Program-made: the position numbers and the translations under genes
Notes under the pieces: model-generated
Told to the model about the DNA's origin: nothing
The model's database searches: none
The model's input: only the letters and a program-made list of their open reading frames with translations
Source of the DNA: a virus
Lineage: Duplodnaviria; Heunggongvirae; Uroviricota; Caudoviricetes
Length of the DNA: 42,322 nt
Direction: 5' to 3' (one strand)
Virus record (IMG/VR): IMGVR_UViG_2541047730_000004
Part shown: positions 6,627 through 37,223 of the stretch, in pieces
Numbering within the stretch: position 1 is the first letter of the stretch
How the letters are laid out: each line of letters starts with the position of its first letter

Positions 6627-6646
6627 TACTGTATAAATATACAGTT
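6627..6646. promoter_or_regulatory. LexA box (SOS box)
   Basis: ATACTGTATAAATATACAGTTA: CTGT-N8-ACAG with an AT-only spacer and consensus-like flanks, ending 6 bp before the ATG at 6652. Confidence 0.75.
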
Positions 6647-6651
6647 ATTGC

Positions 6652-6924
6652 ATGGAGAAGATTAAGATGCAGCAGTATCACTATCCACTGGAAGACGGAT
6701 TTACCGAAAGGATTCACACGCCGGGAGGCGTCAGGTCACTGGTGGAGGGATCGCACTTGATGAAATTACTCCGGGATCTCGATAAGGATGGATTTAATGT
6801 CGATGGCCCACTTGCCGAACTGACTGCACTGATTAACTACGTCACCAGCTCACAGATGTCTATGCGGGATCTGCAAACACATCTCGACTATTGTGCCGAA
6901 CAATTACGAAAACAAACCACATAA
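6652..6924 (+). CDS. Small stand-alone antirepressor-C-terminal-domain protein, candidate SOS-inducible antirepressor
   Basis: Shares a diverged domain (RSLV..S.LM.LL..L..DG..V.G..AELT....YV......M.DLQTH..Y) with the C-termini of both Ant-like proteins at 8074..8730 and 9513..10451. LexA box immediately upstream. Alternative start at 6667 has a well-spaced GGAG RBS. Confidence 0.55.
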   Translation: MEKIKMQQYHYPLEDGFTERIHTPGGVRSLVEGSHLMKLLRDLDKDGFNVDGPLAELTALINYVTSSQMSMRDLQTHLDYCAEQLRKQTT

Positions 6925-6928
6925 AGAA

Positions 6929-6950
6929 AAGGCCGCAAGAGCGGCCTATC
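6929..6950. terminator. Bidirectional terminator between convergent genes
   Basis: GGCCGC-AAGA-GCGGCC hairpin flanked by an A-rich and a T-rich tract. Confidence 0.6.
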
Positions 6951-7674
6951 GTTTCGCTTTGTGCTCGTCCCAGCACGTTTTGCACCATGCCATTAAGCCA
7001 TCCGCATTTTGATTATTAGGGTAAAAACTGGTTCGTTTTCTGCGGACATTACAAATTGGGCACCACTTCATATGGCGTGTATTCTTTGGGCCATCGAGAC
7101 ACCTTGCACACCACTTAGTCAATCCATCTGGATTTTTTGACGATTTCCTGAATTTTCCATATGGAAGGGTTATTCTGCATCGCAAACACTGCTTGCGGGC
7201 ACTTGAAACTTCGTTAGCTGATTCTTCTTTTGACGGCGATACAGAAGGTATTCTTGCTGGCTCTGATACTGCCTGAGGTGCTTTTTTAGGTGACTGAGAC
7301 GATGTGTCATCACCAGGGAATCTTCCATGATATGCCGGACGCGTTGACACTCCAGGTGGAAGCTCTGCTGTAAATGGCTTTGGCTGAATCAGTTGCCTCT
7401 CTTTTGCTAACTCCTGCTGTTTATAATATGTCTGGATTACCGCACTATCATAAGCAGGAGGTGCGGAAATATTAGGCGCATTACCTCCAGTTTTTTGAAA
7501 CTGAGTAGAGGTGTGTTCTATCACCTGTGTACGATTAATCGTTATCTCCCCATCTTCGGTCTTTATCGTTTTGTTATGATTAACGACCGTACGATCAGAG
7601 ATCTTAGTCTTGTTCTGGTTGATAACGTAAATAATCACCGCAACCACACCAACAACTATCCAGAAAACTTCCAT
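6946..7674 (-). CDS. Membrane-anchored protein with tandem Cys-rich (zinc-ribbon-like) repeats; function unknown
   Basis: N-terminal transmembrane helix (VFWIVVGVVAVIIYVI), Pro/Ser-rich linker, then four CxxC pairs in two internal repeats (NPDGLTKWCARC / NADGLMAWCKTC). Confidence 0.55.
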   Translation of the reverse strand: MEVFWIVVGVVAVIIYVINQNKTKISDRTVVNHNKTIKTEDGEITINRTQVIEHTSTQFQKTGGNAPNISAPPAYDSAVIQTYYKQQELAKERQLIQPKPFTAELPPGVSTRPAYHGRFPGDDTSSQSPKKAPQAVSEPARIPSVSPSKEESANEVSSARKQCLRCRITLPYGKFRKSSKNPDGLTKWCARCLDGPKNTRHMKWCPICNVRRKRTSFYPNNQNADGLMAWCKTCWDEHKAKR

Positions 7675-7692
7675 TGCTTTTCCTCACAATAA

Positions 7693-7711
7693 TATTACCT
7701 TAAAGGTAATA
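7693..7711. promoter_or_regulatory. Operator palindrome TATTACC-TTAAA-GGTAATA (perfect 7-5-7)
   Basis: Perfect inverted repeat in the divergent intergenic region between 6946..7674 (-) and 8074..8730 (+). Confidence 0.6.
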
Positions 7712-7742
7712 TCTTGCTTTCAGGTGATCAAGCGTTAAACGC

Positions 7743-7764
7743 AATCAACCAAATACGGTTGATT
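7743..7764. promoter_or_regulatory. Second, different palindrome AATCAACC-AAATAC-GGTTGATT
   Basis: 8-bp perfect inverted arms; distinct from the TTACC/GGTAA motif; same regulatory region. Confidence 0.35.
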
Positions 7765-7786
7765 TTTATATTTATCAGCGTTTATC

Positions 7787-7804
7787 ATTACCTTTGCGGT
7801 AAAT
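7787..7804. promoter_or_regulatory. Operator palindrome ATTACC-TTTGC-GGTAAAT
   Basis: TTACC-N5-GGTAA family. Confidence 0.5.
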
Positions 7805-7894
7805 TTACATCGCACTCCTCTTGTGCCATAGTAATCGGGCACTGGCAAAATCCAGTGCCGGGATTGGTCTCCCGGATTACTAAGTGGCGCATAC

Positions 7895-7917
7895 CACGCC
7901 AGACGTGGTTTTTTTAT
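7895..7917 (+). terminator. Intrinsic terminator-like hairpin inside the 400-bp leader upstream of the AntA-like gene
   Basis: CCACG-CCAGA-CGTGG followed by TTTTTTT; a longer stem-loop (GCACTGG...CCAGTGC) lies at about 7838-7862. Confidence 0.4.
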
Positions 7918-8073
7918 GCGTATAGCACAGTCATGCCAGAATTATGGTGGGCTGAATGGGGGTCCGAAAGGACGCCGGTACCACTTAGGCCGGTAAGACC
8001 AACTCCGTTCAGTTCACCACCATCTGATTGGTCTCAGCGGTGGTGATGTAATTCGCTAAGTGGAGACGCCATC

Positions 8074-8730
8074 ATGAACGCTCAACTCATCCCCGTATTC
8101 AACGGCACTATATCTAACGAAACAGCCCTACTTTGTAATGCCCGCGATCTGCACGCTTTTTTAGGTGTTAAAAAGGTGTTTGCAGCATGGATTACAAATC
8201 GCATATCAGAATACGAATTCATTGAAAATCAAGACTATATTTTGCTTTCCAATTTGGGAAAGCAAACATCTGGTAGAGGCGGCCACAACCGCAAAGAGTA
8301 CCACCTCACCCTTGATACAGCCAAAGAGCTGGCGATGGTCGAGCGTAACGAAAAAGGTCGCCAGGTGCGACGCTACTTCATTGAATGCGAGAAACGTTTA
8401 AGACAACAAGAAACAAAAGTGGAGAAGGTCTTGTCAGGCTTCATGCCCGCCATTATGGAGGCGATCAAGCTGGAAGACAAAAAAGAATACAGCGCCCCAC
8501 TGAAGCCCGGCTACCGTAGCCTGATTCATTCGCCGTCTGGTGTTCTCGGCCTGACGGAGAACTCACTGCTGATGAATTTGCTGAACCAGTTACAGGAAGA
8601 CGGGCATGACGTATCGGGCGCGGCGGCGGAACTGACCACCATGTTCTGCTACATCGTTGGTGTGAGTAAATGCCTGCGTGATATCCAGACGCACGCGGAG
8701 TACATCAACGACAAGGCAGGGTTCTTCTGA
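8074..8730 (+). CDS. Antirepressor, AntA/Bro-N-like N-terminal domain plus shared Ant C-terminal domain
   Basis: N-terminal region (DLHAFLGV...W...[12 protein letters not shown]...[14 protein letters not shown]...RRYFIECEK) is typical of phage antirepressor N-domains; the C-terminal ~75 aa are near-identical to the C-terminus of 9513..10451; RBS GGAGA upstream. Confidence 0.65.
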
Positions 8731-8752
8731 CGGGCGGCGGCACAGGGATGTG
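8498..8752. repeat. Left arm of ~255-bp inverted repeat (about 95% identical to 9489..9746)
   Basis: Direct comparison of the reverse complement: e.g. ggtggtcagttccgccgccgcgcccgatacgtcatgcccgtcttcctgtaactggttcag versus ggttgtcagctccgccgccgcgcccgatacatcatgcccgtcttcctgtaactggttcag. Confidence 0.85.
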
Positions 8753-8795
8753 CTTCTGACATAATCATTTGCGGTGTGATGTAGATTCACGTAAG

Positions 8796-8812
8796 ATTAC
8801 CTTAAAGGTAAA
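8796..8812. promoter_or_regulatory. Operator palindrome ATTACC-TTAAA-GGTAAA overlapping the RBS/start of 8815
   Basis: TTACC-N5-GGTAA family; ends 3 bp before the ATG. Confidence 0.5.
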
Positions 8813-8814
8813 CC

Positions 8815-9039
8815 ATGAGTTTACATGAGGGGGGAAGCATGGAACTGAACATCATCACATTAATGAAAGCGCTTATTGGCGGTGCAGGAAGTGGCTTTGC
8901 TCTTTCTGGCGGGCTGTCTATGATCATACCTACTTTCACAGTGACGACTGGCGTTGCCTACCTTTTTGCCATTACTGGCGGTCTGGCTATGGCAGGTACT
9001 TACATTTTAAAAAAAATGAGTTCCGGTAGTGCAGACTGA
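8815..9039 (+). CDS. Small glycine-zipper membrane protein (cargo; toxin/holin-like or bacteriocin-like)
   Basis: 74 aa, Gly/Ala-rich transmembrane segments (GGAGSGFALSGG, ITGGLAMAG). Lies in the segment bracketed by the inverted repeats. Alternative start at 8839. Confidence 0.45.
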   Translation: MSLHEGGSMELNIITLMKALIGGAGSGFALSGGLSMIIPTFTVTTGVAYLFAITGGLAMAGTYILKKMSSGSAD

Positions 9040-9376
9040 GATCGTACAAGAATCACATTGGTACAATCCACAGACCGCTCAGGAGCTGGCGATCTTTTAT
9101 TGTATCCTTTGCATTGTGTATATAGTAATCCACCTGATATGGGATTTTCTCTCAAAAGAGACTGGTAGGTTTTCTGTTGTTAACCTTCAGTACAAACTGA
9201 ATGAGGTATATTCATCAACCACATTCGCAACGAGTGGTTTTTTCCTCGTTATGTTATGCGACATGAATAACCCTCTTAGAACATCAGATGCGTTTATCAT
9301 ACCGCTTATCTTGGCAATGCTTACTGGATTCATGATATCAATATCCGCAATAGCGCCAAAAAAAGTTAACATTTAA
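9029..9376 (+). CDS. Small polytopic membrane protein (cargo; possible immunity/partner protein)
   Basis: 115 aa with about three hydrophobic helices; start overlaps the previous gene; intrinsic terminator directly downstream. Confidence 0.45.
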   Translation: MQTEIVQESHWYNPQTAQELAIFYCILCIVYIVIHLIWDFLSKETGRFSVVNLQYKLNEVYSSTTFATSGFFLVMLCDMNNPLRTSDAFIIPLILAMLTGFMISISAIAPKKVNI

Positions 9377-9488: not shown

Positions 9489-9746
9489 GCACATCCCTGT
9501 GCCGCCGTTCTGTCAGAAGAACCCTGCCTTGTCGTTGATGTACTCCGCGTGCGTCTGGATATCACGCAGGCATTTGCTCACACCAACGATGTAGCAGAAC
9601 ATGGTTGTCAGCTCCGCCGCCGCGCCCGATACATCATGCCCGTCTTCCTGTAACTGGTTCAGCAGATTCATCAGCAGTGAGTGCTCCGTCAGGCCGAGAA
9701 CACCAGACGGAGAATGAATCAGGCTGCGGTAGCCGGGCTTCAGCGG
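9489..9746. repeat. Right arm of ~255-bp inverted repeat (pairs with 8498..8752)
   Basis: See left arm; covers the 3' end of ant on the minus strand plus about 25 bp past its stop codon. Confidence 0.85.
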
Positions 9747-10451
9747 ATAACCATAACATTTTGTCTGTGTTTTAATTGCCTCACGAAGCGCATCTAACAT
9801 CTTGACTGCCACTTCATCATTCTCTGATGCAGATCCAGCAGGGAGATACTCCCCTTCAAGCGGAACCCGAGCAACAAGAGACAACGCTTCGGCGAATTGA
9901 TCTTCATCAATTTCTTTGTACGAACAGCCAAAATGAGATTTCAGTGACGACCACATGGTGATCATCGCCTTAGCCTGTTTTTCTTTTGGCAGAGACTGAC
10001 CGCGACTCATGACGAGTTGTTTAATGGCTTCCTGCTGTTCAGTGGTGATTTTACCCGGCAACGCCTTTTTAGCTTTGCGTGGGTTAACTACATGGCCTTT
10101 AGTCCAGTAATCGTAGAGCACATCGTCACACTCTTCCTGATACTGGATTACCTTGTCGCGGATTTCAGGGCGTACTTTGTTTGGACTGATGCTGTTCAAC
10201 CAAGCTGCCAATTTTCGTAAAGCCATACAAATCATGGCTTGCACCCCACCGGCAGAAGGTATGGTGATTTCCACCATACCCTTCGAGAAGCGTTGAGAAA
10301 TCTTCTTATGTTGAGATTTCCAGTCTAGCCCCATTCCCTCAACGATAGGTTTCATTGGGGTATACGGTTCACCGTTGTGATTGACAACATAAAGCTCTGC
10401 GCCGTGGAATGGCACGTTGATAGTAGATACCGCTGTTGCTATACTCGTCAT
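9513..10451 (-). CDS. Antirepressor (P22 Ant-like position and architecture)
   Basis: 312 aa directly downstream of an Arc-like RHH gene and divergent from a Mnt-like RHH gene (P22 immI layout); N-terminal domain differs from 8074..8730 but the C-terminal ~75 aa are shared. Confidence 0.65.
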   Translation of the reverse strand: MTSIATAVSTINVPFHGAELYVVNHNGEPYTPMKPIVEGMGLDWKSQHKKISQRFSKGMVEITIPSAGGVQAMICMALRKLAAWLNSISPNKVRPEIRDKVIQYQEECDDVLYDYWTKGHVVNPRKAKKALPGKITTEQQEAIKQLVMSRGQSLPKEKQAKAMITMWSSLKSHFGCSYKEIDEDQFAEALSLVARVPLEGEYLPAGSASENDEVAVKMLDALREAIKTQTKCYGYPLKPGYRSLIHSPSGVLGLTEHSLLMNLLNQLQEDGHDVSGAAAELTTMFCYIVGVSKCLRDIQTHAEYINDKAGFF

Positions 10452-10523
10452 GTCGTTAATTCCTATACGTAGTTTTACGATACTGAAGCCCTGACGGTCT
10501 GGCCACCGTTGGGCTTCGCTGTT

Positions 10524-10691
10524 TTATGCCACGCTATTCTTCTCACCAGTGAGTCCATACACTTTCCTCAGCTGATAGATAATCTCTGTATTGAACTTTC
10601 GGCATTCTTTTTCGCCATTTCTTTCAATAGCTAACTTCACATCGTCCGGAAAACGAACTCGTCGTTGACACATCTCTTTTGCTTTTTGCAT
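10524..10691 (-). CDS. Arc-like ribbon-helix-helix repressor
   Basis: MQKAKEMCQRRVRFPDDVKLAIERNGEKECRKFNTEIIYQLRKVY: beta-strand RVRFP followed by two helices, ~56 aa; AGGAGA RBS 6 nt before this ATG. The longer ORF to 10727 would run through the operator palindrome. Confidence 0.65.
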   Translation of the reverse strand: MQKAKEMCQRRVRFPDDVKLAIERNGEKECRKFNTEIIYQLRKVYGLTGEKNSVA

Positions 10692-10705
10692 TTCATATCT
10701 CCTTA

Positions 10706-10720
10706 GCCCCACGGTGGGGC
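10706..10720. promoter_or_regulatory. Operator palindrome GCCCCAC-G-GTGGGGC; first of three CAC(C/G)GTG elements
   Basis: Perfect 7-1-7 inverted repeat between divergent arc-like and mnt-like genes; related elements CACCGTG (10734-10740) and CACGGTG (10759-10765). Confidence 0.55.
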
Positions 10721-10811
10721 AAAACAATTGTCACACCGTGCGTCATTGATGTCAAGCACACGGTGAGGCATACTTCAATCATTGCAAGTAACTCAATATT
10801 TGGTGAAGAAC

Positions 10812-11243
10812 ATGAGCAGAGAAGATCCACAACTAAGGATCAGACTTCCCGTTGAAGTAAAAGAAAAAATAGAAATTTCTGCAAAAGCCAATAAGCGATC
10901 AATGAACGCTGAAATAGTACAACGTCTTGACACCAGCTTTCTGAAAGATATTCATGAAGATGACGTAATTTCTGCTTATGAAGCAAAAATTATTGCAAAC
11001 AATGCACGGCATGAAATATCAAATATTATTTTCAAAAGAACCTTTAATGAAATTAATAAGAAAATAACACTTGGACATACAAGTTTTTATATAAACCTTA
11101 ATGACCTTGAACTGGAATCACTTGCAGATAATGATTACCAGATCATCTTTGAAAAAACATTTAATAAGCTCAATGAACTAGGTTACATCATCTGTGAAAA
11201 CTCATGGGATGCAGATGGTTTTGGAATTGAAATACCTGAATAG
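10812..11243 (+). CDS. Mnt-like ribbon-helix-helix repressor with a long C-terminal extension
   Basis: PQLRIRLPVEVKEKIEISAKANKRSMNAEIVQRL is an Arc/Mnt-type RHH; divergent from arc-ant; the AT-rich C-terminal ~80 aa have no recognisable motif. Confidence 0.6.
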   Translation: MSREDPQLRIRLPVEVKEKIEISAKANKRSMNAEIVQRLDTSFLKDIHEDDVISAYEAKIIANNARHEISNIIFKRTFNEINKKITLGHTSFYINLNDLELESLADNDYQIIFEKTFNKLNELGYIICENSWDADGFGIEIPE

Positions 11244-27286: not shown

Positions 27287-27363
27287 GTGGCATTAGCTCA
27301 GTTGGACAGAGCAACCGCCTTCTAAGCGGTTGGTCGCAGGTTCGAATCCTGCATGCCACGCCA
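27287..27363 (+). tRNA. tRNA-Arg (anticodon UCU, reads AGA)
   Basis: Cloverleaf by hand: acceptor GTGGCAT/ATGCCAC, D-arm GCTC..GAGC, anticodon stem ACCGC/GCGGT with loop CTTCTAA, T-arm GCAGG-TTCGAAT-CCTGC, discriminator G, encoded CCA. Confidence 0.85.
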
Positions 27364-36550: not shown

Positions 36551-36585
36551 GTTACCTATGAGGTGCATTTACCTGTTGGGTAATA
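36551..36585. promoter_or_regulatory. OR-equivalent: two adjacent operator sites
   Basis: AGTTACC-TATGA-GGTGCAT and TTTACC-TGTTG-GGTAATA between the cro-like and CI-like genes. Confidence 0.6.
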
Positions 36586-36638: not shown

Positions 36639-37223
36639 ATGAAAAGTATCCAGGACGTCCGCAGGCAAAATCTCAACGACTTGATCGACCGTGAATTCAA
36701 TGGTGTTCAGACGCGGATGGCAGAAAAACTTGGAACTCAGGCAAATCTGGTAAACCGCTGGGCTCTTGGCAAGAAGGTTATCGGCGACCAGGTTGCGCGA
36801 AAAATTGAAGCTGCCGCCAATAAACCACGTAACTGGCTTGATATCGATCGCTCGCTTTCTCAGGAAGGTTTTCAGCCTGTCGGCCCAAGCGACATTGGTC
36901 AGCTGGCGGCTCACAACCTGGAACGCTGGATGAGCGAAAGCCGCGACCTTTCAACACAGGGAAAACTTCACCGCGCATCCGGCGTCGCCCAGGTGACAAT
37001 CAGCCGCCTGTTAAACAATGAGGTCAGCGTTTCCATTTCCACCCTGGAGAATGTTGCATCCGCATTCGGGCGTCACGGCTATGAATTACTGATTCACCCG
37101 CACGACCCTGCGACCATCAACTATGACCGCTCGCGCTACGCATTGTTACCCGAAACCGAGAAAGCAAAGATCGAAAGTTATATTGAATTTGTCATCAACC
37201 AGAACGAAAAAAACAAACAATAA
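36639..37223 (+). CDS. CI-like repressor with two HTH (XRE-type) segments and no LexA-like peptidase domain
   Basis: HTH-like RMAEKLGTQANLVNRWALGKK and ASGVAQVTISRLLNNEVSVSISTLENVASAFG. No Ala-Gly / GDSM / Lys autocleavage signature. Divergent from cro; terminator and OL-like sites downstream. Confidence 0.65.
   Translation: MKSIQDVRRQNLNDLIDREFNGVQTRMAEKLGTQANLVNRWALGKKVIGDQVARKIEAAANKPRNWLDIDRSLSQEGFQPVGPSDIGQLAAHNLERWMSESRDLSTQGKLHRASGVAQVTISRLLNNEVSVSISTLENVASAFGRHGYELLIHPHDPATINYDRSRYALLPETEKAKIESYIEFVINQNEKNKQ

Follow-up and report, generated by a model that had tools for sequence, protein, structure and literature searches.

In phage P1 the annotated immI region runs from the C1 operator Oc4 and the promoters P2c4 and P1c4, through a1 (7 nucleotides, nt), b1 (8 nt) and c4 (77 nt), to a2 and b2. 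Two articles (PMC8546580, PMC11143913) credit Citron and Schuster (1990, 1992) with the repression of Ant in trans by C4, an RNA cut from read-through RNA, and the latter article cites Hartmann et al. (1995) for the processing of C4 by RNase P. In the Salmonella prophage Gifsy-1, IsrK is an RNA of about 77 nt that stops at a terminator with partial read-through into the antirepressor gene; STnc1160 is a processed RNA of the same prophage, and IsrK acts on its own read-through transcript (PMC4825925). IsrK supplied in trans raised the translation of anrP 139-fold, and it pairs through its middle part with the C4-like region, as shown by the compensatory pairs G28A/C162U and G31A/C159U; IsrK has also been called a structural homologue of seqA (PMC4825925). 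Records of the aphid-symbiont phage APSE carry an annotated isrK RNA followed by a C4 RNA before a Bro-N gene (PMC7313666). Here we analyze a related locus in the Caudoviricetes record IMGVR_UViG_2541047730_000004, a stretch of 42,322 nt that we call the window. The interval of interest, positions 7675-8073, precedes the antirepressor gene ant, and its parts (promoter flanked by putative operators, IsrK-type RNA, C4, a2, b2, ant) stand in the same order as those of P1. On sequence comparison and by analogy with P1 and P7, the interval is probably a complete immI-type RNA cassette governing ant, in which a small RNA of the IsrK/a1b1 type and an antisense RNA of the C4 type most likely decide jointly whether ant is translated.

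The whole window was scanned against Rfam at the gathering thresholds, and a permissive scan was added for sub-threshold matches. The isrK family (RF01394) matched at 67.7 bits, against a gathering threshold of 50, and the C4 family (RF01695) at 61.2 bits against 45, both over the complete model (positions 1-77 of 77 and 1-87 of 87, respectively; Table 1). The permissive scan gave c4-a1b1 (RF03163) at 7826-7878 with 39.9 bits and E = 1e-8, which is under its gathering threshold of 46.7, on bases also taken by the above-threshold isrK match. The P1 immI region, compared with Rfam, showed the families in the same order, with 68.8 bits for C4, 51 bits for c4-a1b1 and 35 bits (E = 4.5e-6) for isrK. 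Because the P1 region matches both models at the upstream position, we take the isrK family and the a1b1 motif to be two descriptions of one upstream RNA. P1 also has a hairpin and U-run after b1. Its promoter P1c4 (-10 TATAGT) ends 6 nt before position 1 of its isrK match, and the predicted promoter of the window aligns with it: the -10 element ends 6 nt before G7839, where the isrK model begins and near which transcription is predicted to start.

The predicted fold of the IsrK-type RNA (z = -2.9; z-scores and counts of equally good folds are relative to 200 shuffled sequences) has the isrK layout, with a pair of hairpins at the 5' end and a single-stranded linker ahead of a Rho-independent terminator. 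An earlier sequence-only reading of this DNA had noticed a stable stem-loop at 7838-7862, and it is real (-15.3 kcal/mol, z = -4.5, 0 of 200 shuffles as good). The same reading had seen a hairpin followed by T7 about 160 bp before the ATG at 8074; we place it at 7893-7915, where it ends 159 nt upstream of that ATG and its hairpin has -7.2 kcal/mol (z = -3.3). That it could be the 3' end of a small RNA is borne out, the hairpin and T-run being the terminator of the full-length isrK match. The C4 element, which that reading did not include, is the most stable structure of the interval (-41.2 kcal/mol, z = -5.5, equalled by none of 200 shuffles) and the proposed repressor proper; alignment to the annotated ends of P1 c4 predicts 7946-8021 as its mature form. 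Short hairpins and T-runs are common, and our scan of 6800-9200 returned nine terminator-like sites, as one would expect if the structures were chance hairpins or the plain terminator of a neighbouring gene. We give that explanation next to no probability: the neighbouring upstream gene lies on the opposite strand, the fold z-scores run from -3 to -5.5, two Rfam matches exceed their gathering thresholds, and dozens of homologues show covariation, which already contradicts it.

These homologues were collected by a pattern scan of viral contigs and then nhmmer, which yielded about 58 distinct segments, of which 52 were aligned (alignment A1); the comparative counts below refer to these 52. The closing stem of C4 comprises 17 pairs, with 99.3% of the alignment cells paired and 11 of the 17 pairs changed on both sides, and hairpin 2 of C4 has 93.6% of cells paired and 3 of 6 pairs so changed. 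A long covarying closing stem around two hairpins is the architecture of the C4 family. In hairpin 1 of the IsrK-type RNA, 99.7% of cells are paired and 4 of 7 pairs are changed on both sides, compared with 38-50% paired in slid controls for intramolecular stems. The terminator hairpin and its U-run are found in all 52 homologues and form the minimum-energy fold in 46. These hairpins are weak (mean -8.7 kcal/mol), and leaky termination fits this picture. In all homologues, those with unrelated upstream sequence included, the -35/-10 pair keeps the same distance. The interval does hold open frames, namely a 110-amino-acid (aa) open reading frame (ORF) at 7714-8046, a 26-aa ORF at 7916-7996 and a 37-aa frame from the ATG at 7933, and its hairpins might be incidental to a coding function. 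To this explanation we attach a very small probability, as the frames lie wholly over the two RNA-family matches, their lengths are not conserved, and the homologues vary by 1-2-nt loop indels and compensatory stem changes, as RNA does. Judged by the pattern of substitutions and indels, protein coding and chance are both excluded.

The sequences a1 and a2 are identical and are the exact reverse complement of a' over 7 nt, and b1 and b2 are identical and the exact reverse complement of b' over 8 nt. As in P1 and P7, C4 holds in a' and b' the complements of a2 and b2, the latter placed where ribosomes bind ahead of the first gene, and second target copies, a1 and b1, stand upstream of c4 on the same transcript. 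The spacing is also that of P1, where b2 ends 10 nt before the start of icd; in the window it ends 10 nt before the ATG of ant (8074-8076). The address sequences vary widely among the homologues (16 different a' 7-mers and 38 b' loops), and their partners follow. In the MAFFT alignment the b'/b2 columns were only 34-38% paired, being out of register from variable loop lengths, and we therefore used an alignment-free test in which each sequence is compared with its own and with other partners. The complementarity to the own partner averaged 7.0 nt for a1/a' (3.6 nt for non-own partners), 7.0 nt for a2/a' (3.9 nt), 7.2 nt for b1/b' (3.5 nt) and 8.1 nt for b2/b' (4.0 nt), and in each case 0 of 5000 permutations came up to the observed value. 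In the same test, the cross-controls (a1/b' and b2/a') came out null. In the alignment itself, 100% of the a1/a' cells were paired and 6 of the 7 pairs had changes on both sides; for a'/a2 the paired share was 87-96%. This covarying, exact complementarity between the C4 loops and the ribosome-binding region of ant supports the suggestion of the earlier reading that ant is controlled at the level of RNA. The three-way covariation also makes a strong comparative case for a real interaction of the a1/b1 RNA with C4.

Two further helices covary. The 3' arm of C4 can pair with a segment of the ant leader to form an alternative hairpin, mutually exclusive with the closing stem, that shows a2 in the loop of a small inner stem; 95.2% of this helix is paired, and 5 of its 8 pairs show compensatory changes. 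Since the closing stem and the alternative helix both covary, the 3' arm of C4 has two conserved partners that exclude each other. A clamp helix enclosing the terminator has own pairs of 5.3 nt on average against 4.0 nt for non-own pairs, and 0 of 5000 permutations reach the observed value. In the fold of the read-through RNA (7839-8090), a1 and b1 pair in cis with a' and b', 8014-8021 pairs with 8039-8046, and the clamp helix is part of the minimum-energy structure; when the small RNA is left out of the fold, C4 takes its family structure.

Table 1. Positions of the RNA elements, regulatory sites and genes discussed, in window coordinates.
Feature	Position	Strand	Remark
Operator-like palindrome O1, ATATTACCTTAAAGGTAATAT	7692-7712		perfect, 10-bp arms; core TTACC-N5-GGTAA at 7695-7709
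Third, different palindrome, AATCAACC-N6-GGTTGATT	7743-7764		followed by a T-rich run
Operator-like palindrome O2, TTACCTTTGCGGTAA	7788-7802		ends one base before the -35 of the isrK-type promoter
Sigma-70 promoter (predicted)	7804-7832	+	-35 TTTACA 7804-7809; 17-nt spacer; TG-n-extended -10 CATAGT 7827-7832
IsrK/c4-a1b1-type small RNA (predicted, 77 nt)	7839-7915	+	Rfam isrK
Hairpin 1	7839-7858	+	within the IsrK-type RNA
Hairpin 2	7859-7874	+	loop holds a1 (TTGGTCT, 7864-7870)
b1, CTAAGTGG	7880-7887	+	in the single-stranded linker of the IsrK-type RNA
Clamp helix	CGCATA 7888-7893 with TATGCG 7915-7920	+	encloses the terminator; can form only in read-through RNA
Intrinsic terminator (predicted)	stem 7893-7909, U7 7909-7915	+	hairpin and T-run score as terminator-like
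C4-type antisense RNA (85-nt element)	7940-8024	+	Rfam C4; two inner hairpins within a long closing stem
b', CCACTTAG	7981-7988	+	loop of C4 hairpin 2
a', AGACCAA	7996-8002	+	single-stranded joint of C4
Alternative hairpin	8014-8046	+	C4 3' arm TCACCACC (8014-8021) pairs with GGTGGTGA (8039-8046)
a2, TTGGTCT	8028-8034	+	identical to a1
b2, CTAAGTGG	8056-8063	+	identical to b1; overlaps the Shine-Dalgarno GGAG (8062-8065) of ant
ant (218-aa antirepressor)	8074-8730	+	Pfam AntA N-terminal domain, E = 4e-26
Second antirepressor gene, ant with P22_AR_N domain	9513-10451	-	
Rfam sar match	10453-10520	+	45.2 bits; next to the second ant gene
Small ORF in arc position	10524-10727	-	no Pfam match
Arc-domain, Mnt-like ORF	10782-11243	+	

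In the mechanism that we propose, a sigma-70 promoter would start transcription near 7839, its -35 adjoining what motif statistics suggest is an operator of the prophage's own repressor. By analogy with Gifsy-1, most transcripts would end at the weak terminator as the 77-nt RNA, and a fraction would read on into C4 and ant. From this read-through RNA C4 would be excised, with the predicted ends given above; in P1 it is RNase P that generates the 5' end. C4 would then bind the leader through a' (at a2) and b' (at b2), and since b2 overlaps the Shine-Dalgarno sequence of ant, ribosomes would be kept off and no antirepressor made. The complementarity of C4 and leader is seen directly; the repression itself we infer from P1. 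Because a1 and b1 are exact copies of a2 and b2, the IsrK-type RNA would bind the same surfaces of C4. Relief might occur in cis, with a1 and b1 masking a' and b' in the unprocessed read-through RNA as the full-length fold predicts, and in trans, with the short RNA competing with the mRNA for C4 so that translation of ant is turned on. The repressor would set the transcriptional input, the ratio of IsrK-type RNA to C4 would decide antirepressor translation, and the a and b sequences would serve as a phage-specific address.

Several points weigh against this scheme. The pairings are short (7-8 bp), and for the single sequence the duplex energies only modestly beat those of shuffled sequences (3-19 of 500 as good), so that the support for pairing comes mainly from covariation. 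In the GenBank record of P1, a1 and b1 are still no more than "putative" target sites. Were the short RNA always in excess of C4, pure competition would leave ant permanently on, and a competition model must therefore assume differences in stability, Hfq binding or timing. In Gifsy-1, the mutation G28A, placed in a1 in cis, raised basal expression from 4 to 93 units, and the authors explained activation by refolding of the long transcript together with translation of an upstream ORF (PMC4825925). Since G28A in cis raises expression, Gifsy-1 is not fully compatible with a pure decoy model. Going by their numbering only, the published pairs G28-C162 and G31-C159 would fall on a1 (26-32) and a' (158-164).

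An explanation in the manner of Gifsy-1 would have an inactive read-through fold opened by IsrK, an upstream ORF translated and ant coupled to it, C4 itself being no repressor. The locus is homologous to isrK-orf45-anrP, for which experimental data exist, and the full-length minimum-energy fold agrees with the published "structure A" (PMC4825925); the two exclusive, covariation-supported partners of the C4 3' arm likewise fit a conformational switch. An invariant AUG in the 5' arm of C4 (7944-7946) opens just Met-Val-Gly-stop in the window, so an ORF of the orf45 type, which we considered, is rejected here, and across the homologues the frame from this AUG measures 3 to 178 codons, its stop falling at no conserved place. 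With only three codons, the refolding and orf45 model cannot apply as published. The invariant UAUGG around the AUG falls on the 5' end annotated for mature c4 in P1, so that RNA processing can explain its conservation, and ant has a Shine-Dalgarno sequence of its own that b2 overlaps directly. Moreover, the double mutant G28A/C162U of Gifsy-1 gave 224 units against 4 in the wild type (PMC4825925), as expected of a C4 unable to bind a2. We regard this explanation as unlikely for the window, and retain the reading in which C4 represses and the IsrK-type RNA relieves.

A different alternative is attenuation as in P4, with C4 pairing to nascent a1 and b1 and promoting termination at 7893-7915 or, in a Rho-dependent manner, further on. 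A hairpin with U7 does lie inside the leader, and for the small RNA of the window alone the minimum-energy fold gives up the terminator for a structure that uses the 3' flank of b1. Biere and colleagues reportedly found in 1992 that in P1 a block of icd translation leads to polar loss of ant transcription, which would also speak for control at this level. The arrangement further parallels seqA, CI and seqC of P4, where CI RNA causes termination (PMC4825925). Across the homologues, on the other hand, the alternative fold is the minimum-energy structure in only 6 of 52, the terminator winning unaided in the other 46, and a b1-dependent antiterminator was accordingly rejected as a conserved feature. 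The switch-relevant part of b1 is nearly invariant, so covariation lends the antiterminator no support. Control of translation is indicated by the conserved overlap between b2 and the Shine-Dalgarno sequence, and in Gifsy-1 constitutive STnc1160 left the effect of IsrK undiminished (PMC4825925). As the main mechanism P4-like attenuation appears improbable; as a layer added to translational control by C4 and the IsrK-type RNA, such termination is possible.

The gene that follows the cassette changes between homologues. The first gene after b2 is of the AntA, Bro-N, ORF6N, pRha or P22_AR_N type, or Icd-like, so that in viral contigs (loci L004-L122) at least five unrelated N-terminal domains of antirepressors, or an Icd-like gene, are found behind the RNA cassette. 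Judged from these arrangements, the cassette behaves as a portable regulatory module. An Icd-like protein (NF033153) follows b2 in 18 of the 52 homologues and is not found in the window. BLASTP of the 64-aa downstream proteins against P1 Icd gave no match, and the NCBIfam Icd-like profile matches both these proteins and P1 Icd. In one class of homologues, the small RNA and C4 are separated by an additional insert of about 40 nt. Salmonella phage SW-37, which is not Gifsy-1, carries the same cassette.

Upstream of the promoter, the palindromes seen in the earlier reading are real as well: O1 and O2 belong to an over-represented operator family and the third palindrome is different. The motif TTACC-N5-GGTAA occurs in 10 exact copies in the window and in 15 with at most one mismatch, where dinucleotide shuffles give 0.66 and no shuffle reaches 15; because of this over-representation we consider O1 and O2 members of a real operator family. 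O1 is part of a divergent control region; measured from the ATG of the minus-strand gene 6946-7674, it lies 18 nt upstream. O2 is putatively an operator of the prophage's own repressor, whose identity we infer. A TTACC-N5-GGTAA motif at the position of O2 is confined to a Uetakevirus-like subset of the homologues, and other lineages carry other palindromes there; on this comparison, the operators are specific to the phage lineage and the promoter position is conserved. LexA control of the promoter was considered and rejected, there being no LexA box in 7675-7840; the only perfect one nearby (6629-6644) serves another ORF. The third palindrome (fold z = -4.6 as RNA) is present in a single copy in the window, and the idea that it is a repeated operator was rejected. 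It shares bases with the -35-like TTGATT of a second promoter-like site farther upstream (7759-7788, TTGATT-18-TATCAT), an arrangement reminiscent of the tandem promoters P2c4 and P1c4 of P1. The other exact copies of the operator motif lie at 8797-8811 (O3), 26950, 30487, 34176, 34238, 36569, 37281 and 37343. Two pairs, 34176/34238 and 37281/37343, are each 62 bp apart, and the latter pair together with the copy at 36569 flanks a repressor-like helix-turn-helix ORF (36639-37223) that has no peptidase S24 domain. O3 ends 3 nt before the ATG of ORF 8815-9039.

By nucleotide similarity, the window is an epsilon15-like (Uetakevirus, TL-2011b-like) prophage of E. coli. Its closest relative, Escherichia phage TL-2011b, shares 96% identity across 82% of the first 25 kb, and phiv142-3 matches 7782-8200 at 99.5%. 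The phage records of TL-2011b and phiv142-3 have no RNA annotation at the interval, and epsilon15-like phage records label it a hypothetical region. Copies of 7782-8073 at 80% identity or more are carried by 467 of 5426 complete E. coli genomes in RefSeq (about 9%), nearly all of them chromosomal, and the 8 records listed (hits H53-H60) have no annotated features beneath the matches. The interval can now be annotated as an immI-type RNA switch controlling an antirepressor.

The neighbourhood of the cassette holds further genes of this kind. A perfect LexA-box-like sequence, CTGTATAAATATACAG (6629-6644), lies 7 nt (6645-6651) upstream of a 90-aa ORF (6652-6924) that shares 43% identity (E = 5e-18) with the C-terminal domain of the AntA-type protein and may encode an SOS-controlled mini-antirepressor. 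By BLASTP, the C-terminal domain of ant is common to the second Ant and to this ORF; between the two Ant proteins, 88 of 121 residues of the shared domain are identical. The second ant gene belongs to a P22-type immI module at 9513-11243 and, as this module includes a sar match, the phage would carry two RNA-controlled antirepressors. The segments 8497-8731 and 9512-9746, from the 3' ends of the two ant genes, form a 235-bp inverted repeat that is 96% complementary and encloses 780 bp with operator O3 and two small membrane-like ORFs (8815-9039 and 9029-9376); the repeat could be a substrate for inversion or domain exchange. On the minus strand, the divergent 242-aa ORF 6946-7674 has an N-terminal hydrophobic segment, a Cys-rich C-terminus and a weak, sub-threshold match to Stc1. 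A tRNA-Arg (anticodon tct) lies at 27287-27363 (Rfam, 73.3 bits).

These neighbours allow a more far-reaching interpretation of the cassette, which we offer only tentatively. The IsrK/a1b1 RNA might be a dedicated anti-antisense target mimic that titrates C4, forming a three-RNA toggle with a private two-part barcode, and the cassette might be one of three separately wired antirepressor inputs. These inputs would be the 90-aa protein behind the LexA box, the AntA-type protein controlled by C4 and IsrK, and the P22-type Ant controlled by Sar; all three share one C-terminal domain, which presumably targets the repressor. If the three inputs are real, induction would integrate SOS, RNA-ratio and Arc/Mnt signals; if the barcode is, co-resident prophages with the same barcode could cross-talk.

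Among the described systems, P1 shares with the window that C4 and its target are on one transcript and that the operon encodes an antirepressor. P1 has icd as its first gene, whereas the window lacks icd and its b2 overlaps the Shine-Dalgarno sequence of ant itself. The AntA-type antirepressor has no detectable similarity to P1 Ant1 (E = 0.37). At the position of O2, P1 has Oc4; the operators of the window have another sequence and presumably another repressor. The host elements also differ, P1 being a plasmid prophage and the window a podovirus-type prophage. The Gifsy-1 locus isrK-orf45(STnc1160)-anrP is alike in its 77-nt RNA with three hairpins, leaky terminator, C4-like processed RNA and antirepressor gene; it differs in the a and b address sequences and in orf45, in whose place the window has only 3 codons. 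Since the window lacks both icd and orf45, ant would be the direct target of the RNAs, and the window is a cleaner system in which to separate the decoy, refolding and termination models of IsrK.

P4 CI, with seqA and seqC, resembles C4 as a processed small RNA from the leader of the operon that it controls, with complementary sites upstream and downstream. P4 CI acts by premature transcription termination. In the window, by contrast, a conserved overlap places b2 on the ribosome-binding site, which speaks for control of translation, and there is no conserved C4-dependent antiterminator. The earlier reading had cited Sar of P22 as the precedent for RNA-level control of an antirepressor; the level of control stands, and the precedent shifts to P1/P7 c4 and Gifsy-1 IsrK, RNAs of the same strand acting in trans. 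Sar (RF00262) is likewise a small RNA that limits antirepressor synthesis, but it is a cis-antisense RNA of the opposite strand lying over the ribosome-binding site of ant, whereas C4 is on the same strand as ant and has two short trans-pairing sites; even with E allowed up to 5, the permissive Rfam scan of 7650-8150 returned no match to Sar. Both RNAs of the cassette belong to curated families, in a system studied in P1/P7 and Gifsy-1, and the locus itself is a new, previously unannotated member. Its mechanism is not new in kind, and it takes its place as an ordinary member of a known system.

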